DNA of 56,546 nt from Clostridia bacterium (GTDB taxonomy: Bacteria > Bacillota > Clostridia > Oscillospirales > Acutalibacteraceae), in NCBI GenBank assembly GCA_017387475.1, contig JAFOFE010000034.1, forward strand, positions 1 through 56,546, written 5' to 3'. The first letter of the stretch is position 1, and every line of letters starts with the position of its first letter. The notes beneath the pieces were generated by a model that was given only the letters and a program-made list of their open reading frames with translations, was not told the DNA's origin and made no database searches. A program made the position numbers and the translations under genes. Shown piece after piece: positions 21,234-41,658 of the stretch.

Positions 21234-22922
21234 ATGGAAAAGTTATACTTTTTAGCAGATTACGGTATTTTGGAAGATACAGATAAAGATTATACAAAAG
21301 AACTTCAAGAACTGTTTGACAAATTACCAAACGGTGCTGTTGTTCAGTTTAAAAAGGGCAATTATAATATTTTTGGAACTATTGAAGTTAATAATAAAAA
21401 AGATATACAAATACTAGGTAATTGTGCAACCATAACGGCATTTTTTGACCCCACAGGTCCAATTAAAAATAATAACAATGTGTTTAATTTTTCAGGTTGC
21501 TCTAACGTTATAGTTCAAGGCTTTTTCTTTACCACAAATAATAATATCGGCGCAACTGGCGAAGTTGTTGCCATAGATAAAGAAAATAGTAGCTGCGACC
21601 TTTTGTTTTCTGACGAATTTAAGTGGACGGGTTTTGAACATATAGTAGGCACTAACTCTTTTAATGAAAAGGGTTCGCCCGATTATGCAATTGCCACCTA
21701 TGATCATAATCTGGTAGAAGAAGCCTACCAAGACAAAACTCGCCTTGTAGGCAGAGATTACGAAGTTTTAGCTCCAAACCTAATTAGACTTAAAGGAATA
21801 TATTCAGGCGACCCCATTAATAAACTTAAAATAGGGCATAAAATGAACATCAGATACGAAATATACGGCACTTCTGTATTTAATTTCATTTCTTGCCATA
21901 ATGTACTGTTAAAGGATATTGTTATCCATTCTGCTGCATCATTCGGCGCAACAGTAAGACCTAGAAGCAGCAACTTTACTTTTGACAACTTCTCTATGCG
22001 CCTGCCAAATGGCACCGAAAGGGTATTCTGCGCAAATGCCGACGGTGTTCATATATTAGGCCTTATGGGCAAGCTAATCTTTAAGAATTGCAATATCGAA
22101 GGACTAGGGGATGACACCCTAAACATTCACGGAATAGCAGCAAAAACCGAAAATTTAGACACAGAAAACAGAACATTATTTGCTGCATACGCCAGAAATA
22201 AAGAAAGGCCTTTGCCTGATTTTTGGGCTTGTGAAGGGGATATTATACATGTTTACGACCCCAAAACCTTTCTAAAAAAGGCAGAATTTACGGTGGAAAC
22301 CATAGATAAAAACTACAATATTCGCTATAAAAACCTAATTGGTAACATAGAAAACGATGACGTTTTATCCAATTCTGTCTACTATGCATCTGTGCATATT
22401 GACGGATGTACCCTTAAAAACACACGCGCAAGAGGCCTTCTAATACAGTCTCAAAACGTGCTTATAGAGAACAGTTATATATACGGAATGTCCCTTCCTG
22501 CCATGCTTTTTGCCCCTGATATTAGGGTCTGGTACGAGGTTGGACCTGTACAAAATGTTGAAATTCGGAACAATGTAATTGAGTATTGTGCACATACTCA
22601 TTATGGCGCAAATGTGGGTGCAATTGTCTTTAAATCTTGCCACGATGTAGGTGGAAACGACTATCCTTCAGGGGTGCATAGCAACATAAATATCCACGAT
22701 AATTTGTTTATAGATTGCGCTAACAGCGCTATATTTGTGTCTGCTGCAGACCACGTAAAAATTCAAAATAATAGGTTCAAAAACTGCTGTTTTGACCCAC
22801 AAAATAAGGAACTTTCTTATGCCAATTATGACATAGTTACCATCAATTGTACCGATATTTTAGTGTCTGGAAACACATCAGACAGGGCAGGCGACACAAT
22901 ACACATAAATTTGACCGAATAA
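21234..22922 (+). CDS. Right-handed parallel beta-helix glycoside hydrolase-like protein (GH110-like?), no signal peptide
   Basis: 562 aa. Repeated ~23-aa rungs (NVLLKDIVIHS, NVLIENSYIYG, NVEIRNNVIEY, NINIHDNLFID, VKIQNNRFKNC). Acidic residues on consecutive rungs (ANADG … GDD, 23 residues apart). No N-terminal hydrophobic signal. Confidence 0.6.
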   Translation: MEKLYFLADYGILEDTDKDYTKELQELFDKLPNGAVVQFKKGNYNIFGTIEVNNKKDIQILGNCATITAFFDPTGPIKNNNNVFNFSGCSNVIVQGFFFTTNNNIGATGEVVAIDKENSSCDLLFSDEFKWTGFEHIVGTNSFNEKGSPDYAIATYDHNLVEEAYQDKTRLVGRDYEVLAPNLIRLKGIYSGDPINKLKIGHKMNIRYEIYGTSVFNFISCHNVLLKDIVIHSAASFGATVRPRSSNFTFDNFSMRLPNGTERVFCANADGVHILGLMGKLIFKNCNIEGLGDDTLNIHGIAAKTENLDTENRTLFAAYARNKERPLPDFWACEGDIIHVYDPKTFLKKAEFTVETIDKNYNIRYKNLIGNIENDDVLSNSVYYASVHIDGCTLKNTRARGLLIQSQNVLIENSYIYGMSLPAMLFAPDIRVWYEVGPVQNVEIRNNVIEYCAHTHYGANVGAIVFKSCHDVGGNDYPSGVHSNINIHDNLFIDCANSAIFVSAADHVKIQNNRFKNCCFDPQNKELSYANYDIVTINCTDILVSGNTSDRAGDTIHINLTE

Positions 22923-22947
22923 TTGTACAATATGCATAAAAAAATAG

Positions 22948-23004
22948 CAAAAATATGGAAAAGACGTCAAAAAGTGTGGAGTATAGTTACAAAAATACGG
23001 AAAA
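22948..23004 (+). promoter_or_regulatory. Three phased direct repeats CAAAAA-N2-3-TGGA upstream of the GH16 / giant-protein genes
   Basis: caaaaatatggaaaa (22948), caaaaagtgtgga (22968) and caaaaatacggaaaa (22990), spaced 20 and 22 nt. They are followed by an extended -10-like tgtgttacaat (23029-23039, with tacaat at 23034-23039). Confidence 0.3.
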
Positions 23005-23138
23005 TTTTTACTAGTTTTTTTAGCTAAAGTGTGTTACAATACTTTAAAATAGTGCGATTATTTTTATTTTTTAAATAATAAATAATATATACGCACCAAA
23101 ATTTTAGAATAATTTTGTTTAAGTAAAGGAGAAAAATT

Positions 23139-24608
23139 ATGAACCAATTCAAGCGCATTCTAACTTTGGTTTTGGTTGTGATTTTTGCACTGGCTTGTGT
23201 CGGCTGTACAGGATCACAAGGTGGTTCCAATACTACTGGCGCATCAGAGCATCGTCCTCCGTACGTTGACGAATCTGCAGTAGAAGTTGTCGATTACGAA
23301 GACAACGACCATCTCTTCGACTACAAAACCGAAAAGTGGGACGGACCTGAAGGTTATACCATCGTCGTTCCACAAGGCAACTCCGAAGCTATGAATTCTG
23401 CGAAGTACTTACAAAAGTATTTCAAAGATGCATTTGGTGTAAGCCTTGCTATCGCTACCGATGCTACCGAAGTTCAAGATAAAGAAATCTTAATCGGTAA
23501 AACCAATCGCGAAGCTAGCAACACCACAATGGCAGAAGCTGAAATGAAGGTTTCGCTCAAAGGCAAGACACTTGTCTTCGACGGTGGACACGACGTAACA
23601 GTCGATTCTGCTGTTAAAAAGTTTACTCGTGTTACCACAAATGTAAACGAAGCTGCAACCTTCAGCCTTACAACCGATTTCGAATCTACCCTCGACAACA
23701 AGTACGAAGGTCAGTACGCTGGCTACAAGTACGTTTGGGGTGAAGAATTCGAAGGCGAAGGCATCGGCTCCTCTTGGTTCCAGCTCATAGCTAAAATGGC
23801 AGGAAGCGATAAAGCAGAAGTTTCCAAAGAAAAGAACGTTGTAGACGTTAACGAAGGTCGTTTAAAGCTCCACGCTCTTTCTTACTTCAACAACAACCGT
23901 GAAGGTACCGAATATCGTATTCCTTGCTCACCTGTAACACACGAAACAATGAACTTCAAATACGGCTATGCTGAAATCCGTGCAAAAGTTCCATACAAGC
24001 CCGGTTGCTTCCCATCTTGGTGGACACAGTCAACTGCTGGTGTTTGTGGCTACAGAACTGAACACGTAATGTTCGAAGTTGATATTTTCGAAATCTTCCG
24101 TACTTGGGAAAAGACACCTAACATCATCTCTTGGTACGAAGCAGATTTCAACTATGCAGGAAAATATCCTAACTGTCCTGAAATGAAGCGTCTTAACATT
24201 AAGGCTAAACCAGGCGAACACGTTTCTCTTTGCGACCAGTGGGTTGGTTCTAACCAACAGTCTTACCATTGGGAAGAAAGAGATGAACTCAACAACGAAT
24301 ATCATACATACGGTTACGAGTGGACACCCACCGAAATCAATATGACAATCGACGGTAAAGTTCACGCTGTTTACGACATTTCCAAGTCAAGAGATTCTAA
24401 CCCTTCTACATCTCACTATCACGATCCTCAGGGATTCATCTTCAACAACCATATCTTCTTAGAAGGTGTATCACTTGCTTGCGTATCTGTTGCTAAGCAT
24501 CCTAAGTCATTACCAAGTGAATACTATGTAGACTGGATTAGACTTTATCAAAAAGACGACAATGGCAGCAAAATTTATTTTGATGACCAGCGCGATTATT
24601 TAAGTTAA
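23139..24608 (+). CDS. Lipoprotein with a C-terminal GH16 glycoside hydrolase domain (beta-glucanase/laminarinase-like)
   Basis: Signal plus Cys region LVLVVIFALACVGCTGS. GH16 catalytic signature EVDIFE (ExDxxE) within a beta-jelly-roll-like region. The ~170-aa N-terminal domain is unassigned. Confidence 0.8.
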   Translation: MNQFKRILTLVLVVIFALACVGCTGSQGGSNTTGASEHRPPYVDESAVEVVDYEDNDHLFDYKTEKWDGPEGYTIVVPQGNSEAMNSAKYLQKYFKDAFGVSLAIATDATEVQDKEILIGKTNREASNTTMAEAEMKVSLKGKTLVFDGGHDVTVDSAVKKFTRVTTNVNEAATFSLTTDFESTLDNKYEGQYAGYKYVWGEEFEGEGIGSSWFQLIAKMAGSDKAEVSKEKNVVDVNEGRLKLHALSYFNNNREGTEYRIPCSPVTHETMNFKYGYAEIRAKVPYKPGCFPSWWTQSTAGVCGYRTEHVMFEVDIFEIFRTWEKTPNIISWYEADFNYAGKYPNCPEMKRLNIKAKPGEHVSLCDQWVGSNQQSYHWEERDELNNEYHTYGYEWTPTEINMTIDGKVHAVYDISKSRDSNPSTSHYHDPQGFIFNNHIFLEGVSLACVSVAKHPKSLPSEYYVDWIRLYQKDDNGSKIYFDDQRDYLS

Positions 24609-24625
24609 GGAGGGAATAAGGTAAA

Positions 24626-27600
24626 ATGTTATCTTTCGTAAATATGTTCAAGAAAAATAACTTCGGCCGTTCAGTGCTATCTGTAATTCTTGCAGTAGCG
24701 GTTCTTTGTTCAACCTTATCAATGGTAGCCTTAATTCCTACCTTTGCTGAATACGAAGTTTGGGACGGTACAACTCAAACTGCCCCTGTCGATTCCGATA
24801 GCGACGGCGTTTATGAAATTACTAATGCCGACGAACTTGCTTATGTTGTTTATAACGACGGTACAATCAATGGAACAGCTGCTTGCTCTTTCATCCTTAC
24901 CGACGATATTTACATCAACGATCCTAGCAAGGTAAATTGGACCACCGGTGAAGCTATTGGTAGCTACACCATCAATTCTTGGTTCCGTTATTGGAAATAT
25001 GGCAATACCTATAGTAACTTCTCTGGTACTATCGATGGTGATGGCCATACCGTTTACGGTTTATATTTCAAAAATACAACCCAAGGCGCTACCCAGTACG
25101 ATGCAGCAGCTCTTATCCCTGGTGCAACAGGAAATGTAGTTATTGAAAACCTTGGCGTTGACAATGCTTACGTTAACTATACCAACGGTGTTTCTGCATT
25201 TGTAGGTTACGCTACAAACGATACAGTTCTTAACATCAGCAACAGCTTTGCCGGTGCAAATGTTACACTTATCGGTAACGATGCAGGTGTATTCCGTGCA
25301 GTAGCAAGAAACAATGTAGACTGCGTTTTAGAAAACTGCTATTCTCTTGCAACTACTACTGGTACAAAAACTTATGGTCTTATCGGCTTTAACTGGGATA
25401 ACACCAAGTTCACATTCAAGAACTGCTACAATGCAACAGGTCCTTTAAACTTTGGTGGTGGCCCAGGTTGGTACTGCGTATCTCAAAACAGCTATGCTAT
25501 TTCCGATAGCACAGATGCTGGCGGTGGAAACTGGTTATGGGATGGCGTTACCGTTATTACTGCTGATAAAATGCAGGGTCAAGACGTATTCACCGACGCT
25601 GCTAAAATGCCTAACTTAAATCTCGACGGCGTGTACGAAGCAACCGATACATATCCCGTTCTTAAGATTTTCGTAAAAGCAGTAGTTCCTGCTCCCGTTG
25701 TTGAAGTTTGGGACGGTACAACTCAAACTGCCCCTGTCGATTCCGATAGCGACGGCGTTTATGAAATCACTAATGCCGAAGAACTTGCTTACGTTGTTTA
25801 TAACGACGGTACAATCAATGGCAACGCAGCTTGCTCATTCATCCTTACTAACGATATTTATATTAATGATATCAATAAGGTAAACTGGGCAACCGGTGAA
25901 GCTATTGGTAGCTACACCATCAATTCTTGGTTCCGTTACTGGAAATATGGCAACACTTATAGTAGCTTCGCAGGTACTATCGATGGTGATGGCCACATTG
26001 TTTACGGTTTATACTTCAAGAATACCGAACAAGGCAAAACACAGTACGATGCTGCAGCGCTTATTCCTGGCGTAAAAGGCACAGCTGTTATTAAAAACCT
26101 TGGCGTTGACAATGCATACGTTAACTATTCTAACGGCGCATCTGCTTTCGTAGGTTACGCTTTAACCGATTCTACTGTTAACATCAGCAACAGCTTTGCA
26201 GGCGCAAACGTTACAATTATTGGTAACGATGCAGGTGTATTCCGTGCAGTAGCAAGAGACAATATCAATTGCGTTTTAGAAAACTGCTATTCTCTTGCAA
26301 ATACAGTTGGTTCTGCTACCTATGGTCTTATCGGATTCAACTGGGAAAAAAATAGCAAGTTCACATTCAAGAACTGCTACAACGCAAATGGTCCTTTAAA
26401 CTTTGGTGGTGGTCCCGGTTGGTACTGCGTATCCGAAAACAGTTACGCAACAGCTGATAGCATAAATGCAGGTGGCGGCAACTGGTTAGGCGACGGTGTT
26501 ACTGTTATCACTGCTGATAACATGAAGGGTCAAGATGTATTCTCAAATACAGCTAAAATGCCCAACTTAAACACAAACGATGTGTATGAAGCTACCTCTG
26601 GTTATCCTATTCTTAAGTTGTTCAAACAAGCCGCAGGTAATGAACCCGGCGACGACAATACCGAAGTCGATATTTGGGACGGTACAACCACAACTGCTCC
26701 TGCCGGCAACGGTACACAAGCTTCTCCTTACTTAATTACTAACGGTGCAGAACTCGCTTACATCATTTCTAATGGTGGTGGCGCAGACACCTATTATAAA
26801 TTAACAGCAGATATTTACCTTAACGATATCGCTAAAATCGATTGGGCAACAGGTAATGCTATTGCAGAATATACTCCTAACACTTGGTACGATAACGTAG
26901 CTTTCCAAGGTAATATCGACGGTGACGGACACGTAGTTTATGGTCTTTACTTCAAAACACCTTCTTCTACAAGCTGGTCTATCTGGGGTAACGGTCTTGT
27001 TCCTAAGGTTGCCGTTGGCGCAAGCGTATCTATCACCAAACTTGGTGTAGATAAGTCTTATATTTCTGGTAAACACGGCGTTTCTGCTTTCGTTGGTTGC
27101 GCTGGCGATAACATCAGCACATCTGATCGTGCAAACGTTACTATCGACCAATGCTATGTTGGTGCTAATGTAACCTTAAAGGGTCACGATGTAGGTGCTT
27201 TCCGTGGTACAACCAGAAACTCTAACACTACAATTAAAAATTCTTACTCTCTTGCAACTATCATTGCAAACGGTTCCTACGGTCTTGTTGGTAGTATGTG
27301 GACAGTAAGCCTTGATATTGATAACTGCTACATTGTAGGCGCAGGCGTAACAACTGACGTTTGGTCTGCAGGCGTTTCCAATATCTACGCTACACAAGAA
27401 GACAAATACACAGGCGAAGTTGAAGTACTCACTGCCGAAAATATGAAGGGCACTTCTGCTTTAACTAATATGCCTAACCTCAATACAGACGACGTATTTG
27501 TTGCTACAGATTCTTATCCTGTACTTAAGGTATTCGTTAAGGAACAAGATCCTGGCGAAAATCCTGATCCTGGCGAAGATCCAGACCCAGGCGAAACACC

Positions 27601-30600
27601 CGATCCAGGTCCTGGCGAACAACCCGGTGGCACAGTAACCGTTCCCGATTATGTATGGGACGGCACCGAAGTTGCACCTACCGAAGGTGACGGTTCTAGC
27701 GCTAACCCATATCTCATTAAAACAGCCGAAGAACTTGCATACATCATTGCAAACGGTGGTGGCGCTAACACATATTATAAAATAGTAAATGATATTTACT
27801 TAAATGCTACCGAATATATTAATTGGGAAACTGGTGCTGTTACAAACGGCTACACAGCAAGATCTTGGTACGATAACGTAGCATTCCAAGGAATTATCGA
27901 TGGTGACGGACACACCGTTCACGGTCTTTACTACGATGCAAAGGCTAGTGCAAGCTGGTCAATTTGGGGTAACGGTCTTATTCCAAGAGTTGCTGCTAAC
28001 ACAACAGTTTATGTATCTAAACTCGGTATCGACAATGCTTACGTTTCAGGTAAGCACGGCGTTTCTGCCTTCGTAGGTTGTGGTGGCGACAACGTATCTA
28101 CCACAGATTCTACTCGCGCAAAAATTAACATCGACAGATGTTTTGTTGGTGCTAATGTAGTACTTAAGGGTTATGACGTAGGTGCTTTCCGTGGTGCAAC
28201 CAGAGGCTCCGATACAGTTATTTCTAACTCTTACACACTTGCAACACTTAACGGTACAATGACCGGTATCGTTGGTGGCGAAACTTGGGATGCTTCTGTT
28301 GAAATTAGCAACACTTATAACGCTAAGGGCAAGCCCACATCTCAAGCTTGGCATCCTGACTATTCTTTCTTAAACGTATATGTTACCGATGGTGGTAACT
28401 TTGCAAACGATGTTACTGTTCTTACTGCCGATCAAATGAAGGGCACAGATGCATTAACAAACATGGCTAACATAAATGCAGACAATGCATTTATCGCAAC
28501 CGATTCTTATCCTGTTATTAACTTCGCAGGTGGTACTGGTCCCGTAGTTCCAGATAATCCTAGCGATGAAACAGTAACTGTACCCGATTATGTTTGGGAT
28601 AGAACCGAAGTTGCTCCTACAAAGGGCGACGGTTCCAAGAAGAATCCTTACTTAATTGGTACTGCAGAAGAACTCGCTTACGTTATCGCTAACGGCGGTG
28701 GCCAAAGCACATATTATAAATTAACAGCAGACATCTATCTTAATGCTATCGAATATATCGACTGGGCAACAGGCGAAGCTGTAGACGGCTACGTTCCTAG
28801 AACTTGGTACGATAACGTAGCATTCCAAGGCACCATCAATGGTGACGGTTATATGGTTTACGGTCTCTACTTCAAGACCACAAAGACTGCTAAGTTCGGT
28901 TATTGGGGCGAAGGTCTTATTCCTCGTGTTAACCCGGGCACAAGCGCAACCGTTACAAAACTTGGTGTAGATTATGCTTATGTATCATCCGAAAACGCTG
29001 CTTCTGCATTTGTTGGTTTTGCCGGTGCAACAAGCGCTAGCGATTCAAACAACGCAATGGCAAACGTTTCTATCGACAAGTGCTTTGTTGGTGCTAACAC
29101 AACCATTAAGGGTTGGGACGTTGGTGCTTTCCGTGGTGGTACAAGAAGTTCTAACACTTCAATCGTAAACGCTTACTCACTTGCTACTTTAGACGGCGGC
29201 TCTACAAAGGGTCTTATTGGTAACATTTGGGATGCTAGTGTTGCTATTGAAAACGCATACAATGCAAACGGCGCAATCGTTTCTGACATGTGGCTTTCAA
29301 ACATCGACTCTGGTCTTAAGAACGTATATGCAACCGATAAGGGCTTATATGTAGATAAGGTTGTTGGACTTACAACAGACAACATGCAGGGCCTTGATGT
29401 ATTCACAAACGAAGCTAAAATGCCTAACATCAATGTAGACGATGCTTTCGTTGCACAAGATGGCTATCCTGTACTTAAGGTATTTACCGACTTACAGACC
29501 GATACAGTTGTTGAAACTCCCGGTCAAGTATGGACAGGAACAATTGCAGAAGAATTCGCACAAGGCGAAGGTACTGAAGACGATCCATACATCATTTCCA
29601 CTGCTGCTGAACTTGCTTATGCAGTTAAATACAACGGCTTCGGTGGTAAGTATTTCGAACTTTCACACGATATCTTCCTTAACGATATTTCCAATAAACT
29701 TTGGTATCGTTCAGCAGACTGCAACGAATGGTTTGCAGATTCTGCAGGCTTCAACGGTCATATCGATGGTAAGGGCCACATCGTTTACGGTATCTGGTAT
29801 CCTAACGGAAACAAGAATAAGGCTTCTGGTCTTATCCCTGTATTCATGAGTGGTACTATTAAGAATATCGGTGTAAGAAACGCTCAAATCAACGCAGAAG
29901 AATGCGCTGGTGGTATCGTTGGTAAGACAGTTAGAACTGGTATGAAGACTGTTGAATCTTGCTTCGTAGATGAAACAGTATTTGTTGCAACCAACCATAC
30001 AGACTACGCATCCGGTGGTATCGTAGGTATGGCTTACGACACTACAAACGCTGCAGAAATCACATTATTAATTAAGAACTGCTACTCTAAGGCAAGTCTT
30101 TCCGGTATGGATGACGACCGTAAGAACGGTATCTTAGGTGGCTCTTGGAGAACTCCTTACTCCATCATTAACTGCTACTCTGTTGGCTATCCTGTATATA
30201 ATGCACAACACGCAGCAGAAGCAACATCTGCATTCTGGAACTATCATCCTTCAAACGATGCAGAAGCTAAGAACGAAATCCGTGATAAGAACGTTCAACT
30301 CACAGCATTCATTTACAACAACTATTCAGATGTTGGCGTAATTAACCAGTGGACAAATCAAATTGTTATTGCCGATGCAACAACTATGAGAGGCGACGCT
30401 GCTCGTACTTCAATGCCTGAACTCGACTACGTAAATGTATATCAAGTAGTTGAAGGTGGTACACCTAAACTTAAGATCTTCACCACTATCGATGGTAAAG
30501 ATATCTTCTCTTCACAAGATGCCGACTTCTTCGGCGCAGGCAGAGGTTCTATGGATGATCCTTTCATCATCAGAACAGCAGAACATCTCCGCTATGTTGT

Positions 30601-33232: not shown

Positions 33233-33266
33233 TCCTTATAAAACTATAAATAATAGTTAACCTAAA

Positions 33267-33313
33267 GAAAGGCAATAGAGTTTTGAAAAAAAGTCAATTC
33301 TCTATTGCCTTTT
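33267..33313 (+). terminator. Rho-independent terminator after the 2868-aa gene
   Basis: aaaggcaatagag … ctctattgccttt stem followed by ttt. Confidence 0.7.
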
Positions 33314-33374
33314 TCATTTGTTTGTTGTAAAATAACTAATGTACAAATTTTATCATTAAATGAGGTGTTGATTT

Positions 33375-35315
33375 ATGAAATTTTACAAATTCGGAGAAGA
33401 AAAAGTTTTAAATTTAAAACTTACAACTGCCACTAATATCGATGCTGTGCCTGAAGTTACAAAAAAGGTAATTGCTCGCTTTGCGTCGGTAAAAACATCT
33501 GCTAACGACATTGCTGCAATTTTGGTTAAACCTCTTTGTCCGGCAACCGTTGCATTCCTTGAAGAAAAAACAGGAAACAAGTACGAAGCACACGATGAAG
33601 CTTTTGTAATTAAAGCCGAAGACAACAATATCGTTATCTACGCTAACGACGATTCCGGCGTTCGTTGTGGTTTAATGACATTCCTTCGCTTACTTAACAA
33701 TAAATCTTGCTTCAACTATACATATATCTACGACTATCCATTTAGCGCTTTCCGTGGCGTAAAAATTTATATGCCCGGCACTAATGAAATTCAAGATTAT
33801 AAAGATTTTGTTGACATGATGATGTATTATCGCAGCAACAAAATTATGATAGAAGTAGGTGGTGCTATGGAATATAAGCGCCATCCCGAAATCAACGAAG
33901 GCTGGGAAGCATTCTGTAAAGAAATGACCGAATATTCGGGTAAAGCTAATAAGGTTCAAGACTGCACTTATCCTTGGCGTAAAAATTCTATGCACGTAGA
34001 TAACGGCGCAGGTTCATACATTTCACAAGAACAGGTTAAAGAACTTGTTAAATATGCAGAAGATCGTGGTATTGAAGTTATTCCCGAAGTTCCATCATCT
34101 TCTCACTGTGACTACTTGTTAACACGTCATCCAGAACTTGCAGAACGTTGTGAAGACCCATATCCCGATACATTCTGTCTTTCAAACCCTGCTTCTTACG
34201 AACTTCTTTTCGACGTGTTCGACGAAGTTATAGAAGTGTTTAAGCCTAACGTTATAAACGTTGGACACGATGAATTCTATTCTATCAACGTTTGCGACCG
34301 TTGCCGTAAAAGACTTATGGACACACACGACCTTTTCGCTGAAGATTTAACCAAAATTCACGACTATCTTGCAGAAAAAGGCGTTAAGACAATGTTCTGG
34401 TGCGATAAGCTTCTTAACGTTCTTACAGAAAATGGTTCAAACTTCGGTGGCGCTATTAACTATGTATATCTCAATTGGGACAGAAATGCTAAATTCCTTG
34501 GCGTAATTCTTCCCACATGGCAAGCAAGAGATATCTTACCAAGAGATATTATTTGTATGAACTGGTTCTGGTCATTCGGCGAACAGTACGATGAAGATTT
34601 AAGAGAATATCCTGTTGTATTCGGTAACTTCAATGGTACCGGAATGAAGGGCTTCCGTAAACGCTGTGGAAACAATACATCGGGTGGTATGTGCTCCAAC
34701 TGGGGCGGAACCAATCCTCGTTGCTTACAAAGAAATGATATCTATTTCACTATGGCGTTCAACGATAACCTTTATTGGAATACCGAATATGACGATACCG
34801 ACGAGCATTTCACTCAGGTTACCGATAAAATCTTCGAAGATCTTTTCGCATATAATAACGGACCCGAAGATAACTATGGTAACCAATATATCGAACTACT
34901 CCATACAACCGACCTTTACGAATTGTATCATCCTTTCTTCGATGGCGAACTTGCTTATGGACCTAAGTACGAAGAAGACTACTATCTTGGCGATTATGTA
35001 ATTAAATATACCGACGGTACAACCGAAAACAACAGACTTTACCTTGGTGAATCTATTGCAGCGTCCAACCTTGAATGGTATGGTAAGCTTATGGTTAAAG
35101 AGGGAACAAGTGATGCCCCCGGTACCATTGGCTCCAGAATCGACAGTCGCTTAAAAGAAATTTGTTATTCCACCATTCCCGTTAAGGCAGATGACAAAAT
35201 TTTCTACAAATACCTGCTTAAAAACCCCTGCCCCGAAAAGACAGTTGAAAGCGTTGAATTCAAACTCGCAGAAGGTGCAGATTGGACAGTAGAAGTTAAA
35301 GACGTTAAGTTCTAA
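33375..35315 (+). CDS. GH20-like (beta-N-acetylhexosaminidase-type TIM barrel) hydrolase, no signal peptide
   Basis: 646 aa. FRGVKIYMPG … NKIMIEVGG … RGIEVIPEVPSSSHCDY … NVGHDEF parallels the GH20 pattern RGxMLD / IPEID-PGH / HxGGDE (D-E catalytic pair retained). GAGGTG RBS. Confidence 0.6.
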   Translation: MKFYKFGEEKVLNLKLTTATNIDAVPEVTKKVIARFASVKTSANDIAAILVKPLCPATVAFLEEKTGNKYEAHDEAFVIKAEDNNIVIYANDDSGVRCGLMTFLRLLNNKSCFNYTYIYDYPFSAFRGVKIYMPGTNEIQDYKDFVDMMMYYRSNKIMIEVGGAMEYKRHPEINEGWEAFCKEMTEYSGKANKVQDCTYPWRKNSMHVDNGAGSYISQEQVKELVKYAEDRGIEVIPEVPSSSHCDYLLTRHPELAERCEDPYPDTFCLSNPASYELLFDVFDEVIEVFKPNVINVGHDEFYSINVCDRCRKRLMDTHDLFAEDLTKIHDYLAEKGVKTMFWCDKLLNVLTENGSNFGGAINYVYLNWDRNAKFLGVILPTWQARDILPRDIICMNWFWSFGEQYDEDLREYPVVFGNFNGTGMKGFRKRCGNNTSGGMCSNWGGTNPRCLQRNDIYFTMAFNDNLYWNTEYDDTDEHFTQVTDKIFEDLFAYNNGPEDNYGNQYIELLHTTDLYELYHPFFDGELAYGPKYEEDYYLGDYVIKYTDGTTENNRLYLGESIAASNLEWYGKLMVKEGTSDAPGTIGSRIDSRLKEICYSTIPVKADDKIFYKYLLKNPCPEKTVESVEFKLAEGADWTVEVKDVKF

Positions 35316-35324
35316 AAACAATTC

Positions 35325-35361
35325 AAAACAGCAGAAGTCAAACACGGCTTCTGCTGTTTTT
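35325..35361 (+). terminator. Rho-independent terminator after the GH20-like gene
   Basis: 13-bp stem aaaacagcagaag / cttctgctgtttt plus a T-tract. Confidence 0.8.
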
Positions 35362-35469
35362 GTTTTATGGTTCTACGCATTAGTGGAATAAAATTACAAA
35401 TTGTGCACTTTAAACAAAATGCACCTTCTTATTTATATAAACTAGTGTATATGTTTTTAAAAATTACTA

Positions 35470-35545
35470 TGTTATAATATAACAGAATGGTGGAATATTG
35501 TCTTTTTGCACATAATGTTCCATAAACTAAAGTCTTGGCAAGACT
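35470..35545 (+). promoter_or_regulatory. Putative promoter/operator region of the 1955-aa gene: two 7+1+7 palindromes
   Basis: tgttata-a-tataaca (35470-35484) contains an extended -10 TGtTATAAT. agtcttg-g-caagact (35531-35545) lies 40 nt upstream of the ATG. Confidence 0.3.
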
Positions 35546-35585
35546 ACAAAAATTGCCGAATTTTAATTCGAAAGGGAGAAATACC

Positions 35586-38500
35586 ATGAGAAACTTAAAG
35601 AAATCTTTAAGCCTAATTCTCGCGCTCGCACTTATGGTGTCAAGTGTTTTTGTTGGTGGTCTTACTGCTTCTGCAGCACTCGACCTTTATAGCTCAACAA
35701 TGACATTCGACGAACCCGACGTTCCATACATTAATCATACCGATTGGGACGGTCAAAAAGGAACAAACATAACAGGTCGTTACGGCTGGGACCACTTTGC
35801 TGTATGGAATGCAGAAGTAGCTCAAAGTCCTTTATCTAGCGAACAAGACTATGCCGGTCACTTCGTAAGATCAAAACAAGAAGGACACGACTATGCTGCT
35901 ACCCTTAGCCTTTATAAAGAAGGAACAACCTATCTCGACAGATATAAGGCAAAAGCAAATACTACTTACGAAATTAAGTTTAAGTATTATGTAGAAACTG
36001 CAGCTAATAAGCCTTTCACTGTTCAGGTTCGCCTTGTTAGCGATATGATGTATCGTTGTGGCACAGCCGGAACACTTATGTGTGATGTCGTTACTATCGA
36101 AAATACTACTGATGGTTGGGTATGGGCTTCTGCCAAATTCACAACACCCGATACATTAGTACAACCCGACTTCGCACTTGTTACAACAAACTCTGTTAAG
36201 GGCGAAGAAGTTATATCTCTTTATGTAGACGATATTACTTTAAGTGAATGCGCAGCTGTTACTGCATATAATTTCGATGGCGAAAACGAAAAAGAAGTTT
36301 ACGCTTCCGAATACACAACCCTTGCTGAACTTGAAATTCCTCAGCGTGACGGTTATATTTTAACAGGCTTCTTTGCTGACGAAGAGCTCAACAATAAGCT
36401 TAACGCTTCCGATCTTGCTTTAAACTATATCGATAGTGGCATTTACTATGGTTGGTACAAACTCGCTGCCGGTGAATACTATGCAGGCTTTGAAAATTAT
36501 AAAGCAGACGCAAACGGCGTTCCTTATAATTCTGCTACCACTTCTATTGTTAGTGGTAACACCTATGCAGGTGGCTACAACATTAAGGTAGATGCAAACG
36601 ATAACGCTTTAAATGCTTTCGAACTTCGCGACAGTGAAGCTTTCGAAATTAAAGCGGGCACCAAATACGTTGTTTCCTTCCATTACCGTGCTTCTGCCGA
36701 TGCAAAGCTTTATGTAGGTACTGCATATGCAAGCAATGTTCCTGCAACTGCAACTGCAGTTAAAGCTGCAAACCTTGTTGCTGCTGCCGATTGGACAGCT
36801 GCTTCTGTTGAAGTAACTTTAGATAAGTCTTCTAAAGAAGGCTTCGTTCCTGTATTTATGGTTCAGGCTGCAGATTCTGTAGTTGAATTCGACCATATTT
36901 ATTTAACATACCCCGTTGAAGAAACTCAAAATATTGAAAATGGTTTTGTAACCAATACAAACTGGTATCCTGTTCTTAACTATGCAGAAGATAGTGAAGA
37001 ACCCGAAGAAGAACCGGAAAGTCAAGCAAGCGATGTTTGGAAAGGTGACCGCGTAGCTCCCACAGCAGGCGAAGACGGTATTTACATTATCGATACTGCA
37101 GAAAAGCTCGCTTACATCGTATATAATAGCGGTAAAATGATTATTGGTTCTACCACAACACAACAACCCGTAGTTGGTGAAGATGGTACTCCTGTTCTCG
37201 ATGCAGAGGGCAATCCTACCTATGAAGACGTTACTACTTATGAATACGATACCAACTGCACATTCAAACTTACAAAAGATATTTATCTTAACGACGTAAC
37301 TAAGTACGACTGGATGTCCGGCGTAGCAGCAGGTTCCGGTATCAGAAGCTGGTATGAAGGCAAGTCCTTCAACGGTACCATCGATGGTAACCACCATACA
37401 ATTTATGGTTTATACTTCTGGTATAAATGGAGTCTTTATCATTCCAATAGTGGTGGATATGGCTTCATTCCCGAACTTAAAAATGGCGATAAAGTAACAA
37501 TCAAGAATCTTACAATCGATTATGCTACCGTTAGAGGTGGTACAAATGCCGCAGCATTTGTAGGTGGTGCTAATGCAAGTACTGCTGTTCTCGATTCTTG
37601 TATTGCAGGTGCAAATGTATGGGTTGAGGCGTTCCGTTCTGCAGCATTTGTAGGTGGCGCTAAACAGCCTAAAGCTACTTTAACAAACTGTGCTTCTTTC
37701 GCTACTACTGTTTATCCTGAAGGAAGCAGCAATGCTACTACCGGTCTTGTTAGTGATTATTATGTTAGCAAAACTGTTGTTAAAAACTGCTTTAACGCTA
37801 ATGGTCCTATAGCTACCGGCGCTAGTGGAAGTTTAACTGTTACCAGCAGCTTCGAAACCGTTCCCGGTGGCGAAACCGACGGTGTAACAGTTCTTAAAAA
37901 AGAACAAATGCAGGGCAAAAATGTTCTTAAAGACGGTGGCGCAATGGCAGCTCTTAACGCTACTGCTAATTACTGGACTGCAACCGAAGGCTATCCAGTT
38001 TTAACTGCTTCTCTCGGTAAAGAGGTTATAGTTAAAGAAATTTGGGATAAAACACAACAGGCTCCCGTAGATAAAAACGGCGATGGTGTTTATGAAATTA
38101 ATTCACCAAAAGAACTCGCTTATGTAATTTACAACGGTGGTACTATGACTGTAGATGAAGTGGCAGTTGAAGGCTGCAGCTTCATTCTTACAAGAGATAT
38201 TTATTTAAACGACCTTTCTAAATACGATTGGACTTCTTTCACAAGACTTCCTAAAGGTCAAACCACCCTTAACGAGTGGTATGACACCTCATCATATGGC
38301 GCTGCATTCAGCGGTACTATTGATGGTAATAATCATACAGTTTACGGTTTATACAGCTGCTATGACTGGACCGACACTTATAATGGTTATGGCAAGGGAC
38401 GTGGACTTATCCCTGCCATTGCAAACGGCAAAACAGCAACCGTTAAAAACTTAAATCTCGACTGTTTCTATGTTTCTAACGAAACTATGGGTTCGGGCGC

Positions 38501-41453
38501 ACTTTCTGGTGTTGTTTATGGTACATTAAATGTATCTAACTGTTCTTTCGGTTCTAAAGTTTACGTTAAGGGCTCATACGCAGGTCTTGCGTATGGTTGT
38601 ACCAACGATGCCGATGGCGTTACTATAACAAACTGCTACTCACTTGCAACCACAAATGCTTGGAATGCCGCAAACGCCACAACAATACATAGTGGTATTG
38701 CTACAAACCATTGGATAGAAGGTGGCGGTAAGGTTTTAATTAGCAACTGCTACAATGCAAACGGTGCAATAACCACCGACGTTACCAGCTATGCTACACT
38801 TTCAAACTGTTATGAAACTGCAGAATCTGGCGAATCCGAAGGCGTTGAAACCTTAACTGTTGAAGAAATGAAGGGCGAAAATGCTCTTAAAAACATGAAA
38901 AACCTCAACTCTACCGGCGCATATACACTTACTGTAGATTTAGGTTATCCGGCTCTTATTTCCTTCGTTCCCGAAGATGAAAGATTAGTTATCGAAGAAG
39001 AGGAAGAAGAAACCGAAGAAGAAATCGTTTACGACATTTGGGATGGCGAAACCAAAACAGCTCCTTCTGTTGGTGAAGGTACCGAAGATAAACCTTTCCA
39101 CATTACAAACGGTGCCGAACTTGCTTACATTATTGCAAATGATGGTGGCGCAGGCGTTTACTATCAGTTACAAAATGATATTTATCTAAACGATATTTCA
39201 AAGATTAACTGGCAAACAGGCTCCGTTGCCGATGGTTACACCTTAAGAACCTGGCGCTACGGTGGCAGCACTAAATTCCAGGGCAATGTAGACGGTAACG
39301 GTTATGTTGTACATGGCCTTTATGCTCACGATGCAACTACCGGCCCTGCAACTGCACCTACATATTCTATGGGTCTTTTCTCTACCGTTAAGGGAAATAC
39401 TACAATTAAAAATCTTGGTGTAGATCACGCATTCTTCCATCACGAAGCAACAGCAGGCGCGTTAATTGGTTGTGTTTACGGTACAGATGTTGTTGTAAAC
39501 ATTGAAAACTGCTTTGTTGGCGCAAATGCAAATGCCGAAGCAAATCTTGCAGGTGGCTTTATCGGCTGTGTAGCAGGTGGTGGCTCTGTAGTTATCGATA
39601 AATGCTATTCTCTTGCAACCAGCAAGGGCTTTATCGGAAGTCTTTACTACAACAGCAAACCTAAGGACATCACAATTTCAAATTGCTACTATCCCGGAAA
39701 ATTCTTTACAAATATGAACTATTCCGGCACACGTACAGTTGCAAACTGCTACGAAGGAGTTAAGGGTAGTGCATGCACAGGCGTTACAACCATTACTACT
39801 GCCGACAATATGAAGGGCGAAGACGTTTTAACAAATACTGCTAAAATGGCAGGACTTGGTAAATACTTTAAAGCAAACACTGCAAACTTCGCAACTGTAA
39901 ACTACAATAACTATGTATATCTTCCCGCAGGTACTACAATCGAAGCCGACTTTGCTCCATTATTCTTCGATACACGTATGGCACCTCTTTCTGCCGAAGA
40001 CGTAATGTTTGTAGACAGAATGATTCGCGGCGCTTATGTTAAGTTCCAAAAAGAAGTTGACATTACAAAGATCAATGTTCCTGTTTCTAAAGCGCATCAG
40101 GTAACATTTGGCACTGCTAAAGATTTACTTGCAACAGGTTATTTCGACATTGAAACAACCCTTGTTTCCGAAAACCTTGTAAACCAACCCGATACTGCAG
40201 TTAACTATATCTTCGTTACCGACCCCCACTTCGATACAGGCTCGGCTATCTACAAGCAGAATTCTGCTAAACAGTTCGCACTTGCTATCGAAATGGCAAA
40301 CGAAATGGAAGAAATCGATTTCGTAGTTCTTGGTGGCGACCTTTCAAACGGTGGCTATGGCTCTAGCGAAACTTGGGGTCTTGGTGCTTACAACGATAAG
40401 GGCGATGTTACAACAAATGGTATGGCTCAATATCTTGCAGCAATCAACGATTGCACAAAGCCTGTATTCGTACTCGCAGGTAACCACGACGACAACACCT
40501 ACGGTGAAGTTAAAGACAGCGTAACAGTTGAACAACTTTCCGACAGAGCAATCTCTCCTGATGAATGGAACGAATATATTATTAACAAGTTCGTTAACCG
40601 TACTCTTGCAGACGGAACCGAAATCAAGGTTACACAAGATAAGGATCCTCATAAGGACACTGTTAACTCTAAGTATTATTACTACGATTTAGACGGCAAG
40701 AACACCCGTGTAATCTGCCTCTTCGCTTCCGATTATGAATACACCTACGACGAGAATGGCAATTACAGCCTTATCGTTAAGAATGAAAACGAAGTAAATG
40801 CACGTTCAAAGACATATAACGGTTATAACTTCTGGGGTTACAGCAACTATCAGATGAAGTGGCTTGCTGAAGAAGCACTTGGTAACCTTCCCGAAGATTA
40901 CAACGTAGTGGTATTCTCTCACATGGATATTCTTGGCGAAACCACATCCAGCGGCACCTTCAGAGCATATAAGAACGGTCAGGTATTAAGCGACATCTTA
41001 TCTGCTTACCAGAACAAGACCGCTTATACTAACGAAAGCCTTGGCATTACTTCTAACTTCTCCGATACCGGCAGAATTATGTCCTATCAGTATGGCCACG
41101 AGCATACATCCTACAATGCTTACGATCAGGACGTTTCCGTTTGGAAGATTACTTCTTCTACAACTAACCCACACTCAAAGGGAATTGGTGGAAGAATTAA
41201 TAACGAAGACGCTGCAGCTGTTGAAGCAGTTTCTGTAACCGAAAGCTATGTTTACAAGCAGGTTGTAGGCCACGGCGACACTTCATTCTTAATTAACAAG
41301 TTCCCCGTATATGAAGGCGACGTAACTCTCGATACTACTGTAGATATTTGCGACCTCGTTGCTCTTAATAACTTAAACAACGCAGGACTTGTAACCGGCG
41401 TTATGCCAACAGGCGATATCGCAAAAATGCGCAAAATTATTATTGGCGCATAA
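35586..41453 (+). CDS. Giant (1955 aa) secreted protein: CBM-like x2, Listeria-Bacteroides repeat, 3 GLUG-like beta-helix modules, calcineurin-like metallophosphoesterase, dockerin-like C-terminus
   Basis: Start at MRNLKKSLSLILALALMVSSVFVGGLTASA (GGGAGA RBS). Modules start near 37032, 38040 and 39036, with the same cap motif as the 2868-aa protein. Metallophosphoesterase motifs: VTDPHFD, LGGDLSNG, LAGNHDDN, FSHMD, YGHEH (about 40200-41115). The C-terminus has GDVTLDTTVDICDLVALNNL (about 41314-41453). Confidence 0.85.
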   Translation: MRNLKKSLSLILALALMVSSVFVGGLTASAALDLYSSTMTFDEPDVPYINHTDWDGQKGTNITGRYGWDHFAVWNAEVAQSPLSSEQDYAGHFVRSKQEGHDYAATLSLYKEGTTYLDRYKAKANTTYEIKFKYYVETAANKPFTVQVRLVSDMMYRCGTAGTLMCDVVTIENTTDGWVWASAKFTTPDTLVQPDFALVTTNSVKGEEVISLYVDDITLSECAAVTAYNFDGENEKEVYASEYTTLAELEIPQRDGYILTGFFADEELNNKLNASDLALNYIDSGIYYGWYKLAAGEYYAGFENYKADANGVPYNSATTSIVSGNTYAGGYNIKVDANDNALNAFELRDSEAFEIKAGTKYVVSFHYRASADAKLYVGTAYASNVPATATAVKAANLVAAADWTAASVEVTLDKSSKEGFVPVFMVQAADSVVEFDHIYLTYPVEETQNIENGFVTNTNWYPVLNYAEDSEEPEEEPESQASDVWKGDRVAPTAGEDGIYIIDTAEKLAYIVYNSGKMIIGSTTTQQPVVGEDGTPVLDAEGNPTYEDVTTYEYDTNCTFKLTKDIYLNDVTKYDWMSGVAAGSGIRSWYEGKSFNGTIDGNHHTIYGLYFWYKWSLYHSNSGGYGFIPELKNGDKVTIKNLTIDYATVRGGTNAAAFVGGANASTAVLDSCIAGANVWVEAFRSAAFVGGAKQPKATLTNCASFATTVYPEGSSNATTGLVSDYYVSKTVVKNCFNANGPIATGASGSLTVTSSFETVPGGETDGVTVLKKEQMQGKNVLKDGGAMAALNATANYWTATEGYPVLTASLGKEVIVKEIWDKTQQAPVDKNGDGVYEINSPKELAYVIYNGGTMTVDEVAVEGCSFILTRDIYLNDLSKYDWTSFTRLPKGQTTLNEWYDTSSYGAAFSGTIDGNNHTVYGLYSCYDWTDTYNGYGKGRGLIPAIANGKTATVKNLNLDCFYVSNETMGSGALSGVVYGTLNVSNCSFGSKVYVKGSYAGLAYGCTNDADGVTITNCYSLATTNAWNAANATTIHSGIATNHWIEGGGKVLISNCYNANGAITTDVTSYATLSNCYETAESGESEGVETLTVEEMKGENALKNMKNLNSTGAYTLTVDLGYPALISFVPEDERLVIEEEEEETEEEIVYDIWDGETKTAPSVGEGTEDKPFHITNGAELAYIIANDGGAGVYYQLQNDIYLNDISKINWQTGSVADGYTLRTWRYGGSTKFQGNVDGNGYVVHGLYAHDATTGPATAPTYSMGLFSTVKGNTTIKNLGVDHAFFHHEATAGALIGCVYGTDVVVNIENCFVGANANAEANLAGGFIGCVAGGGSVVIDKCYSLATSKGFIGSLYYNSKPKDITISNCYYPGKFFTNMNYSGTRTVANCYEGVKGSACTGVTTITTADNMKGEDVLTNTAKMAGLGKYFKANTANFATVNYNNYVYLPAGTTIEADFAPLFFDTRMAPLSAEDVMFVDRMIRGAYVKFQKEVDITKINVPVSKAHQVTFGTAKDLLATGYFDIETTLVSENLVNQPDTAVNYIFVTDPHFDTGSAIYKQNSAKQFALAIEMANEMEEIDFVVLGGDLSNGGYGSSETWGLGAYNDKGDVTTNGMAQYLAAINDCTKPVFVLAGNHDDNTYGEVKDSVTVEQLSDRAISPDEWNEYIINKFVNRTLADGTEIKVTQDKDPHKDTVNSKYYYYDLDGKNTRVICLFASDYEYTYDENGNYSLIVKNENEVNARSKTYNGYNFWGYSNYQMKWLAEEALGNLPEDYNVVVFSHMDILGETTSSGTFRAYKNGQVLSDILSAYQNKTAYTNESLGITSNFSDTGRIMSYQYGHEHTSYNAYDQDVSVWKITSSTTNPHSKGIGGRINNEDAAAVEAVSVTESYVYKQVVGHGDTSFLINKFPVYEGDVTLDTTVDICDLVALNNLNNAGLVTGVMPTGDIAKMRKIIIGA

Positions 41454-41465
41454 CTTCTAAAAATT

Positions 41466-41498
41466 AAAAGGATGAACCGAAAGGTTCATCCTTTTTTT
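41466..41498 (+). terminator. Rho-independent terminator after the 1955-aa gene
   Basis: aaaaggatgaacc gaaa ggttcatcctttt plus a T-run. Confidence 0.8.
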
Positions 41499-41571
41499 AT
41501 GTAATGGGGAACAATAGGCTAAAAATTTGTACTTCAAAATAAAAAAGAGAACAACCTGTTGGTTGTTCTCT

Positions 41572-41658
41572 TGGTGCCGCTAATCGGACTTGAACCGATA
41601 CGGTATCGCTACCGAGGGATTTTAAGTCCCTTGTGTCTGCCTATTCCACCACAGCGGC
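41572..41658 (-). tRNA. tRNA-Leu (anticodon UAA), 87 nt, encoded CCA
   Basis: The reverse complement reads GCCGCTGTGGTGGAATAGGCAGACACAAGGGACTTAAAATCCCTCGGTAGCGATACCGTATCGGTTCAAGTCCGATTAGCGGCACCA. Anticodon loop CTTAAAA, long variable arm. A downstream hairpin agagaacaacc tgtt ggttgttctct sits at 41546-41571. Confidence 0.9.

Follow-up and report, generated by a model that had tools for sequence, protein, structure and literature searches.

Organization of the locus

The stretch of DNA analyzed here (the window) comprises 56,546 nucleotides from Clostridia bacterium (Bacillota; Clostridia; Oscillospirales; Acutalibacteraceae), positions 1 to 56,546 of contig JAFOFE010000034.1 in NCBI GenBank assembly GCA_017387475.1. 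Between a split transketolase gene and a tRNA-Leu(UAA) gene lies a block of five co-directional genes, g1 to g5, in which glycoside hydrolase (GH) genes alternate with genes for two giant proteins built from one repeated module. Open reading frame (ORF) analysis showed that the five ORFs fill positions 21234-41453 on the plus strand; the ORFs and the tRNA agreed in coordinates and flanks with an earlier reading of this DNA made from the letters alone (the original prediction). The genes are:

21234-22922, plus strand: g1, 562 amino acids (aa), GH110-like right-handed beta-helix protein
23139-24608, plus strand: g2, 489 aa, predicted GH16 lipoprotein
24626-33232, plus strand: g3, 2868 aa, array protein without an enzyme domain
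33375-35315, plus strand: g4, 646 aa, GH20 beta-N-acetylhexosaminidase-like protein
35586-41453, plus strand: g5, 1955 aa from the ATG start codon, secreted array protein

For g5, the ORF finder gave an alternative TTG start at 35535, which yields a product of 1972 aa and places 17 additional residues before a canonical signal peptide.

The repeated module is a right-handed beta-helix

The two giant proteins had been predicted to share 11 copies of one module of about 310 aa, and this count was borne out. The g3 protein contains eight copies and g5 three; their lengths range over 284-327 aa and their pairwise identities over 22-82%, and at the DNA level they repeat with a period of about 920-1000 bp. 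A hidden Markov model built from the 11 modules found no further copy within the window.

Pfam searches of the five proteins assigned GH16, GH20, Beta_helix, Metallophos and CBM_4_9 domains and left the modules nearly unannotated. When the giants and the single modules were searched against Pfam and NCBIfam, GLUG was matched by 2 of the 11 modules (best E = 0.015) and Peptidase_M26_N by none, so that the window copies fall under the Pfam thresholds for both PF07581 (GLUG) and PF05342 (Peptidase_M26_N). Matches of the giants to COX5B and Sat4 were spurious. The profile of the 11 modules, however, matched Protein Data Bank (PDB) entry 3N6Z with E = 3.8e-11, in an alignment that spans the N-terminal cap motif and the helix rungs; the cap motif common to both is DIxLN ... 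FxGxxDGxGHxVxGL. Entry 3N6Z is a protein of Bacteroides ovatus that was deposited as 'putative immunoglobulin A1 protease'. An AlphaFold2 model of module 1 was a right-handed beta-helix (pLDDT 89, pTM 0.91), and Foldseek placed 3N6Z first among its structural matches (probability 1.00, TM-score 0.56) and gave the Streptococcus pneumoniae IgA1 protease (6XJA) a probability of 0.94. Pectate lyases and the beta-solenoid of the Lactobacillus reuteri SRRP adhesin (probability 0.2-0.4) scored far lower. In the homologous array protein P0117, the modules pass Peptidase_M26_N at 47.5 bits (cutoff 27.7). The data showed that the module, which had been regarded as an unknown type, belongs, in divergent form, to the GLUG / Peptidase_M26_N beta-helix superfamily, its membership in the curated families being indirect. 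At 50% identity clustering, the module profile matched 60,336 protein clusters with E <= 1e-3, 31,565 with E <= 1e-10 and 5,575 with E <= 1e-30. Proteins of this family contain up to 21 copies and are up to 7,824 aa long.

In the pneumococcal IgA1 protease, the homologous helix (about residues 781-1070) binds the substrate Fab and gates the active site, which is built by the MD and CTD domains and not by the beta-helix (PMC7695701). Elsewhere the GLUG motif has been described as 'of unknown function' and as possibly adhesive (PMC9723798, PMC9210967), and no study of the function of such helices in tandem arrays turned up in our literature searches. The Pfam and NCBIfam searches detected no Peptidase_M26_C domain with its HExxH zinc site in g3 or g5, and both were therefore ruled out as IgA1 proteases.

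Conservation was analyzed over 351 non-redundant modules. It affects mainly Trp, Gly, Pro and hydrophobic residues and is densest in the N-terminal cap, and the consensus of the helix body contains recurring Asn and Cys (NCY). The sole outstanding conserved polar positions are D47, N51 and D84, present in 80-98% of the modules. This pattern suggests a structural scaffold and is unlike a conserved active site, although it does not prove that catalysis is absent.

The two ends of g3 evolve differently

The g3 protein consists of a signal peptide, eight beta-helix modules (M1 to M8), a Flg_new-like segment, a beta-sandwich resembling carbohydrate-binding module (CBM) families 4/9, a C-terminal transmembrane helix and a KKKA tail. 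The modules and the C-terminal region are located as follows:

24755-25681, plus strand: M1, distal module
25703-26629, plus strand: M2, distal module
26669-27541, plus strand: M3, distal module
27650-28525, plus strand: M4, distal module
28589-29491, plus strand: M5, distal module
29525-30487, plus strand: M6, membrane-proximal module
30503-31387, plus strand: M7, membrane-proximal module
31430-32350, plus strand: M8, membrane-proximal module
32393-33214, plus strand: C-terminal region, with the Flg_new-like segment at about 32393-32605, the CBM4/9-like domain at about 32609-33055 and the transmembrane anchor at about 33131-33214

The transmembrane helix and the KKKA tail were read directly from the sequence, in agreement with the predicted C-terminal tail anchor. 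The Flg_new match in g3 was below threshold (E = 8e-4, 19.9 bits) and the CBM_4_9 match was weak (E = 0.025). The Listeria-Bacteroides repeats that had been predicted for both giants were found as sub-threshold matches only (18-20 bits against 27), but orthologs do carry PF09479.

The modules of g3 were compared one by one with those of four orthologs in orthology matrices. By pairwise identity, M1-M5 form one subtype (DNA repeat families D1-D5), and M6, M7 and M8 represent three distinct subtypes. M1 and M2 arose by recent duplication (82% aa identity) and are nearest to module 3 of P0003. Each of M6-M8 has a 1:1 ortholog in every relative examined, with 85-87% identity to the closest (P0002) and 53-57% in the most distant (P0009), always on the matrix diagonal. 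M4-M5 have 1:1 orthologs in the closest relative only (82-84% identity), and M1-M3 have none even there (identity <= 58%). The orthologs of g3 are 48-70% identical overall and contain 6, 7 or 8 modules, and conservation of the C-terminal region among close relatives is 74-94%. With the anchor at the C-terminus, it is the rapidly evolving end of g3 that lies farthest from the cell. A stalk (the eight tandem modules) and an anchor (the transmembrane tail), both features of fibrillar adhesins, are present in g3; a distinct adhesive tip domain was not found, as M1 directly follows the signal peptide. The linker between M3 and M4 (window positions 27541-27650, aa 973-1008 of g3) is a low-complexity segment rich in Pro, Glu, Asp and Gly, EQDPGENPDPGEDPDPGETPDPGPGEQPGG, and most other linkers are 5-21 residues long.

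g5 carries a metallophosphoesterase and a degenerate dockerin-like tail

From its N-terminus, g5 has a signal peptide, a Flg_new-like segment flanked by two CBM4/9-like sandwiches, three modules, a metallophosphoesterase domain and a degenerate dockerin-like tail. The features are:

37032-38012, 38037-38972 and 39033-39884, plus strand: the three beta-helix modules
about 40209-40928, plus strand: metallophosphoesterase domain (Pfam Metallophos)
about 41316-41450, plus strand: dockerin-like tail with one recognizable Ca-loop

The CBM-like beta-sandwiches predicted for both giants were supported above threshold in g5 (CBM_4_9, 29.3 bits; the second sandwich is similar) and weakly in g3; the Flg_new match of g5 was sub-threshold. 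The C-terminal metallophosphoesterase was missed in the original domain list. It matched PF00149 with 32.6-35.9 bits (cutoff 21.5), and its motifs DxH, GD, GNH(D/E), H, GH and GxH are all invariant in 8-9 homologs. A PDB sequence search with this domain gave no match. Foldseek of its structural model returned 2nxf (8.7e-8) and the glycerophosphodiesterase GpdQ (3e-6), with purple acid phosphatase also near, and these fold matches indicate a broad class only.

The tail of the window g5 retains one Ca-loop (DVTLDTTVDICD), has lost the second loop and has no Pfam match, while its homologs have two Ca-loops and score 19.2-22.7 bits against the Dockerin_1 cutoff of 22.9. No cohesin was matched by Pfam in any protein of the block, g3 included, or in the window. 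The predicted dockerin-like segment therefore stands as a likeness, short of a type I dockerin.

Orthologs of g5 are up to 92% identical, and the copy number of g5 varies. The window has one copy, and relatives have two or three metallophosphoesterase giants in tandem:

L093:1-15856 and L096:1-15793: three tandem copies each
L094:3824-15894 and L095:697-13135: two copies each

The window g5 corresponds to the copy nearest to the tRNA (65% versus 49% identity). A small DUF559-type gene lies upstream of the two tRNA-proximal g5 copies in L095 and L096; in L096 it is between the first and second copies.

The enzymes g1, g2 and g4

In g2, a lipoprotein-type signal peptide and an N-terminal alpha/beta domain of about 150 aa precede the GH16 domain (aa 194-472), which matched PF00722 with 36.7 bits (cutoff 22). 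The catalytic motif EVDIFE (aa 313-318, nucleotides 24075-24092) is invariant in five orthologs. The signal peptide, MNQFKRILTLVLVVIFALAC, has a basic n-region and a hydrophobic core and ends in the lipobox-like A-L-A-C (...FALAC), in line with the lipobox Cys of the original prediction; in the orthologs Cys23 (...VGC) is invariant and Cys20 is not. By these sequence features g2 is a predicted lipoprotein. When the profile of g2 orthologs was compared with the PDB, the best match was 6t2n (1.9e-17), but laminarinases 8xph/8xpk were close behind (6-8e-17), and the profile did not separate the O-glycanase 6T2N from the laminarinases as an indicator of GH16 specificity.

The g4 protein consists of a GH20b-like N-domain, a catalytic domain (aa 140-350) and an unassigned C-terminal region of about 300 aa. 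It matched PF00728 with 73.8 bits (cutoff 22.3) and PDB structures of GH20 enzymes with E values down to 5e-16, and its catalytic GHDE motif (aa 297-300), with the adjacent Asp-Glu pair, is invariant in orthologs. The thresholds passed and the motifs found uphold both the GH16 and the GH20 calls. The most conserved gene of the block is g4, with 90-92% identity in relatives where g3 reaches only 58-60%, and the giants evolve much faster than this enzyme.

The g1 protein was previously called beta-helix hydrolase-like, and this enzyme-type reading can now be narrowed. It matched Pfam Beta_helix with 40.3 bits and, over aa 215-543 (about 325 residues), the GH110 alpha-1,3-galactosidase structures 7jw4 and 9beh with E = 3e-21, which makes it specifically GH110-like by homology. 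Neither g1 nor g4 has a signal peptide, and in g4 the N-terminus is conserved. Both are therefore probably cytoplasmic and not surface enzymes, contrary to the first assignment of the two hydrolases to the surface apparatus.

Arrays are fused to enzymes in homologous proteins

Domain fusions and anchors were surveyed in the 120 best homologs of the arrays. Fifteen of these arrays end in GH16 and eight in a phosphoesterase, and six carry SASA/SGNH esterases. The fused GH16 domains lie C-terminal to arrays of 5-6 modules and are 31-33% identical to g2 along their whole length. The anchor differed between the types: enzyme-less arrays like g3 have a transmembrane tail (74 of 91), GH16 arrays have no anchor, and phosphoesterase arrays have a dockerin-like end (seven of eight). 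A second locus, L092 (GCA_054288765.1, contig JAZPDG010000011.1, 2968-21257), is in the same genome as the related locus L001 and contains five consecutive GH16 genes, whose products are 303, 1978, 2320, 292 and 1064 aa long; in those of 1978 and 2320 aa, GH16 is the C-terminal domain of a beta-helix array. The locus suggests that GH16 and arrays expanded in a lineage-specific manner.

A four-gene core is conserved in related Clostridia

The order GH16-giant-GH20-giant (g2-g5) recurs in at least seven relatives, all uncultured Clostridia, in two genomic contexts. In one context the genes lie behind ileS-lspA-rluD-tkt (L001 and L002, with L003, L006 and L010 as partial loci of that type); the other is a different neighborhood (L004/L005 and L007). 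Since L001 has g1 but L002 and L004 lack it, the core consists of g2-g5 and g1 is accessory, so that the proposed co-conservation applies to four of the five genes. All homologs of g3 are giant proteins of uncultured Clostridia. Samples, when given, were of ruminant hindgut; the hosts on record include water deer (rectum) and dairy cattle (colon), and a Clostridia metagenome-assembled genome labelled HGM was also among the relatives. Homologs of g4 with 53-60% identity in L008 and L009 have no adjoining module protein and were set aside; L009, in which numerous ORFs overlap on the two strands, appears to come from another kind of organism.

The upstream flank in L004 (1-8313) encodes a divergent AraC/PocR regulator, a LacZ-type GH2, a DegT aminotransferase, a GFO/IDH/MocA oxidoreductase and a PIG-L deacetylase, and the downstream flank (25470-27140) encodes a 269-aa Metallophos protein and a polysaccharide deacetylase. 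The regulator, the GH2, the aminotransferase, the oxidoreductase and the two downstream genes characterize the L004/L005 neighborhood as a whole. The flanking genes of L004 are possible partners in the catabolism of amino-sugar glycans.

Transcription units and the flanks of the block

The terminators and the neighboring tRNA gene are located as follows:

21147-21182, plus strand: bidirectional terminator hairpin after tktC, with a 15-16 bp stem and a T-run on both strands
35325-35360, plus strand: terminator after g4, with a 15-bp stem containing 6 GC pairs and a T-run
41470-41497, plus strand: terminator hairpin after g5, aaaaggatgaacc-gaaa-ggttcatccttttttt, read from the sequence
41572-41658, minus strand: tRNA-Leu(UAA), the conserved right-hand neighbor of the block

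The terminator after tktC separates the block from the housekeeping operon, and the hairpin after g5 is also present behind g5 orthologs. No terminator comparable to the one after g4 was found between g2, g3 and g4. Because terminators of the block occur only after tktC, g4 and g5, and the gap between the g2 stop and the g3 start is 17 bp, the arrangement suggests g1, g2-g3-g4 and g5 as separate transcription units.

Upstream of the block are the genes for IleRS, LspA, RluD and the split transketolase, and downstream are tRNA-Leu(UAA) and the genes for a PP-loop ATPase, a YifB-like protein and Wzz. A capsule/exopolysaccharide-type cluster that is conserved in relatives lies downstream of the block (window positions 44286-52000). 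It includes Wzz and then, as assigned from the synteny with L094, genes for a CbiA/ParA-like kinase, CpsB and a Polysacc_synt_2 epimerase/dehydratase. At the other end of the window, a small surface protein (ORF 2922-3581, minus strand) contains IIKQTGE, a transmembrane helix and then KKNALFVK, an atypical sorting signal. The adjoining ORF 2247-2921 (minus strand) contains LVLYTCYP and resembles a sortase. The sortase signal predicted at 2.9 kb is thus accompanied by a sortase-like gene, but its form (KQTGE, transmembrane helix, KK) is not the canonical LPXTG.

The block had been called an island, and the tRNA at its border, with its 3' end facing the block in the window, would fit integration of a horizontally acquired element at the tRNA-Leu gene, as would the variable gene content of the relatives (presence or absence of g1, one to three g5 paralogs) and the siting of the cassette elsewhere in more distant relatives. 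However, no integrase or transposase homology was found in any gene of the block by ORF, Pfam and NCBIfam searches, and no att-type repeat of the tRNA 3' end was found elsewhere in the window. The GC content, the GC content at third codon positions and the synonymous codon use of the block match those of the neighboring housekeeping genes; here the earlier view of a core-like composition without mobility genes was correct. The left flank (tkt) is kept in L001 and L002, and the right flank (tRNA-Leu(UAA), PP-loop, YifB, Wzz, CpsB) in L094 and L095. In four relatives the tRNA is 100% identical and lies on the opposite strand, so that its 5'/promoter side faces the block. The inversion in the window (41500-41700) relative to the four relatives (compared at L093:15900-16060 and L094:15940-16100) covers the whole tRNA unit, from the promoter-like TTGACA...TAATAAAAT through the tRNA to its terminator hairpin.

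An empty tkt to tRNA-Leu site was not found in the metagenome contigs scanned with TktC, where the 80 loci recovered were all <= 79% identical and too distant to decide the matter; in none of them is tkt followed by the cassette, by tRNA-Leu(UAA) or by the PP-loop gene. Comparison of this interval gave conserved flanks with variable numbers of modules and g5 copies. Because the flanks are conserved and integrase genes, att repeats and a compositional shift are lacking, the locus is old in the clade; it is plastic by internal duplication and loss, not by insertion. Horizontal acquisition at the tRNA is extremely unlikely.

Proposed function of the locus

We consider the block to be a lineage-specific chromosomal locus of uncultured animal-gut Clostridia whose products form a surface apparatus that binds and degrades a complex glycan, with a probability of about 0.6. 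The broad original prediction of glycan capture, degradation or adhesion at the surface fits the domain calls, the co-conservation of g2-g5 and the GH16-array fusions. In the proposed mechanism, g2 would be a membrane-tethered GH16 endo-beta-glycanase that cuts the polymer outside the cell. The g3 protein would form a membrane-anchored, enzyme-free rod of eight beta-helices, with the Flg_new-like segment and the CBM-like domain at its base and its variable distal end as the exposed part. The g5 protein would be a secreted or loosely attached rod with CBMs at one end and a dimetal phosphodiesterase near the other, which would remove or cleave phosphodiester-linked groups. Oligosaccharides would be imported by a transporter encoded elsewhere and trimmed in the cytoplasm by the GH20 enzyme g4 and likewise, where it is present, by the accessory GH110-like alpha-galactosidase g1. 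For the modules, the most likely role is that of rigid, non-catalytic spacers or binding platforms, which may hold the CBMs and enzymes beyond the cell wall and contact the polymer or particle, as judged from module conservation and by analogy with the IgA1 protease.

The combination of GH16, GH20 and GH110-like enzymes, the GH2 gene in L004 and the animal-gut origin of the relatives favor a host-type glycan of galactose (Gal) and N-acetylglucosamine (GlcNAc), for example poly-N-acetyllactosamine (poly-LacNAc) or a mucin O-glycan with alpha-Gal caps. The best structural match of the g2 GH16 domain, which comes from a study of mucin O-glycanases, is a further hint. A specific Gal/GlcNAc glycan of this type, such as alpha-Gal-capped poly-LacNAc, can be named only tentatively and is doubtful as the actual substrate.

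Several observations weigh against this model. The GH16 data fit beta-glucans equally well, and because laminarinases score near 6T2N, g2 may act on a beta-glucan. L092 has GH16 genes without GH20, so that the arrays are not tied to one substrate. The structural model of the g5 phosphoesterase is of moderate confidence (pLDDT 69), and its substrate class is a guess. The block (21234-41453) contains no transporter or regulator gene, unlike typical Gram-positive polysaccharide utilization loci. In g3, the CBM-like domain adjoins the membrane anchor, an odd place for a capture domain. Finally, the putative non-catalytic role of the modules draws on conservation patterns and a single characterized relative, while catalysis is common among beta-helix folds and D47, N51 and D84 are conserved.

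That the giants are primarily adhesins or colonization factors, whose arrays bind host mucus, plant particles or cells and whose neighboring hydrolases are supporting or unrelated, is rather unlikely. Membrane proteins of gut archaea with GLUG and Flg_new have been proposed as adhesins (PMC9723798), and a Peptidase_M26_N/3N6Z-like cluster emerged from a survey of fibrillar adhesins (PMC9210967). The weak match to the SRRP beta-solenoid, the lack of a catalytic domain in g3 and the fast turnover of its distal modules, as in exposed adhesin tips, agree with such a role. The tight spacing of g2 and g3, the retention of the g2-g3-g4 unit across two genomic contexts, the repeated fusion of arrays to GH16, esterases and phosphoesterase, and the missing tip domain in g3 disagree with it. 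The two explanations also overlap, as adhesion and glycan capture are compatible. An extension of the glycan-degradation model, in which the arrays serve as a surface-display scaffold, is quite unlikely as a whole. Anchored g3-type arrays would form the platform, anchor-less arrays with a GH16, an esterase or a phosphoesterase with dockerin-like tail would dock on it by helix-helix or dockerin-like contacts, and the distal modules would bind host ligands as the IgA1-protease domain binds Fab, giving an analogue of the cellulosome for host glycans.

Remodeling of the cell's own envelope is decidedly improbable. The targets would be teichoic-acid-like or other secondary wall polymers or capsule, with g5 as a glycerophosphodiesterase-type enzyme and GH16 and GH20 trimming wall glycans. 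The fold of the g5 phosphoesterase is nearest to GpdQ and the ADPRibase-Mn-like 2nxf, the block sits between lspA upstream and the Wzz/CpsB/capsule-type cluster downstream, and the L004 cassette adjoins a polysaccharide deacetylase and a small Metallophos protein. The flanks, however, are conserved housekeeping genes with no functional link to the block, and the lack of signal peptides in the GH110-like and GH20 proteins suggests that imported sugars are broken down in the cytoplasm. Nutrient acquisition is the typical setting of CBM4/9-like domains and GH16 endo-glycanases, and the L004 cassette is accompanied by a sugar-type AraC/PocR regulator and GH2. It is very unlikely, too, that the single modules are enzymes in their own right (such as polysaccharide lyases, glycosidases or peptidases) and the giants tandem multi-enzyme polypeptides. 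The right-handed beta-helix is the catalytic fold of PL1/3/6/9, GH28 and GH110 among others, pectate lyases were among the fold matches, and both the three conserved polar residues and the deposited name of 3N6Z would suit an enzyme. Against this, the lyase and hydrolase fold matches were weak (E >= 0.03, TM-score <= 0.36), the polar residues lie in the N-terminal cap motif that the modules share with the non-catalytic IgA1-protease domain, and the helix body showed no evident conserved acidic pair. The regular fusion of arrays to recognized catalytic domains suggests that the arrays themselves do not provide the catalysis. The reading as a glycan-binding and glycan-degrading surface apparatus is therefore preferred.

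Relation to known systems and significance

All parts of the locus are of known kinds: the GLUG/M26_N beta-helix, GH16, GH20, GH110-like protein, metallophosphoesterase, CBM4/9, Flg_new and the dockerin-like tail. With the GLUG/Peptidase_M26_N helices (3N6Z, 6XJA) the modules share the fold, the cap motif and a similar size, but here there are 3-8 tandem copies instead of one, no M26 catalytic domain, and CAZymes, a phosphoesterase and CBMs as partners, and the window copies score below the Pfam thresholds. As in surface glycanase systems of gut Firmicutes and Gram-positive polysaccharide utilization loci, extracellular GH16, CBMs, anchoring and cytoplasmic GH20 and GH110-like proteins are encoded by co-oriented genes. 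The block differs from these systems in having no ABC transporter or regulator (AraC/PocR adjoins the cassette in L004), in that about 70% of its coding capacity is given to non-catalytic beta-helix arrays, and in that one giant has no enzyme domain.

The structure 6T2N is an endo-acting GH16 O-glycanase of mucin degraders (Crouch et al. 2020, PMC7419316). The g2 protein has it as best structure match and shares ExDxxE, and the GH20 and GH110-like proteins of the block and the GH2 of L004 match the exo-enzymes needed for LacNAc-type glycans. However, the identity of g2 to these O-glycanases is low, g2 has an extra N-terminal domain and a long insertion, and laminarinases match nearly equally (6e-17 versus 1.9e-17). 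The locus recalls a cellulosome in that g5-type proteins end in a dockerin-like segment and an enzyme-less anchored protein is encoded beside enzyme carriers; it differs in the absence of cohesin in g3 and the window, the loss of the second loop in g5 and a repeat unit that is a beta-helix and not a cohesin. Long anchored repeat stalks, GLUG with Flg_new, rapid evolution and occurrence in animal guts are shared with fibrillar adhesins and adhesin-like proteins (PMC9210967, PMC9723798), but in place of Ig-like domains of about 100 aa the units here are beta-helices of 300 aa, a separate tip domain is missing from g3, and linkage and fusion to hydrolases are conserved.

The locus is not a new kind of system, as multimodular surface glycanases and repeat adhesins are well known. 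In the literature searched we found no description of tandem arrays of this helix as CAZyme carriers, of the split between transmembrane-anchored enzyme-less and anchor-less enzyme-bearing arrays, or of the conserved GH16-array-GH20-array cassette. The module copies of the window are nearly unannotated by Pfam and NCBIfam despite a family of more than 60,000 clusters, for which functional data come from one streptococcal protease only. The locus is a useful entry point, as it offers a compact, conserved four-gene cassette that includes one array with and one without an enzyme, relatives in which GH16 and arrays are naturally fused, and a contrasting evolution of the two ends of g3. Once worked out, the function of the arrays would help to explain how abundant uncultured hindgut Clostridia attach to and degrade complex glycans, and would improve the annotation of thousands of giant 'hypothetical' proteins.

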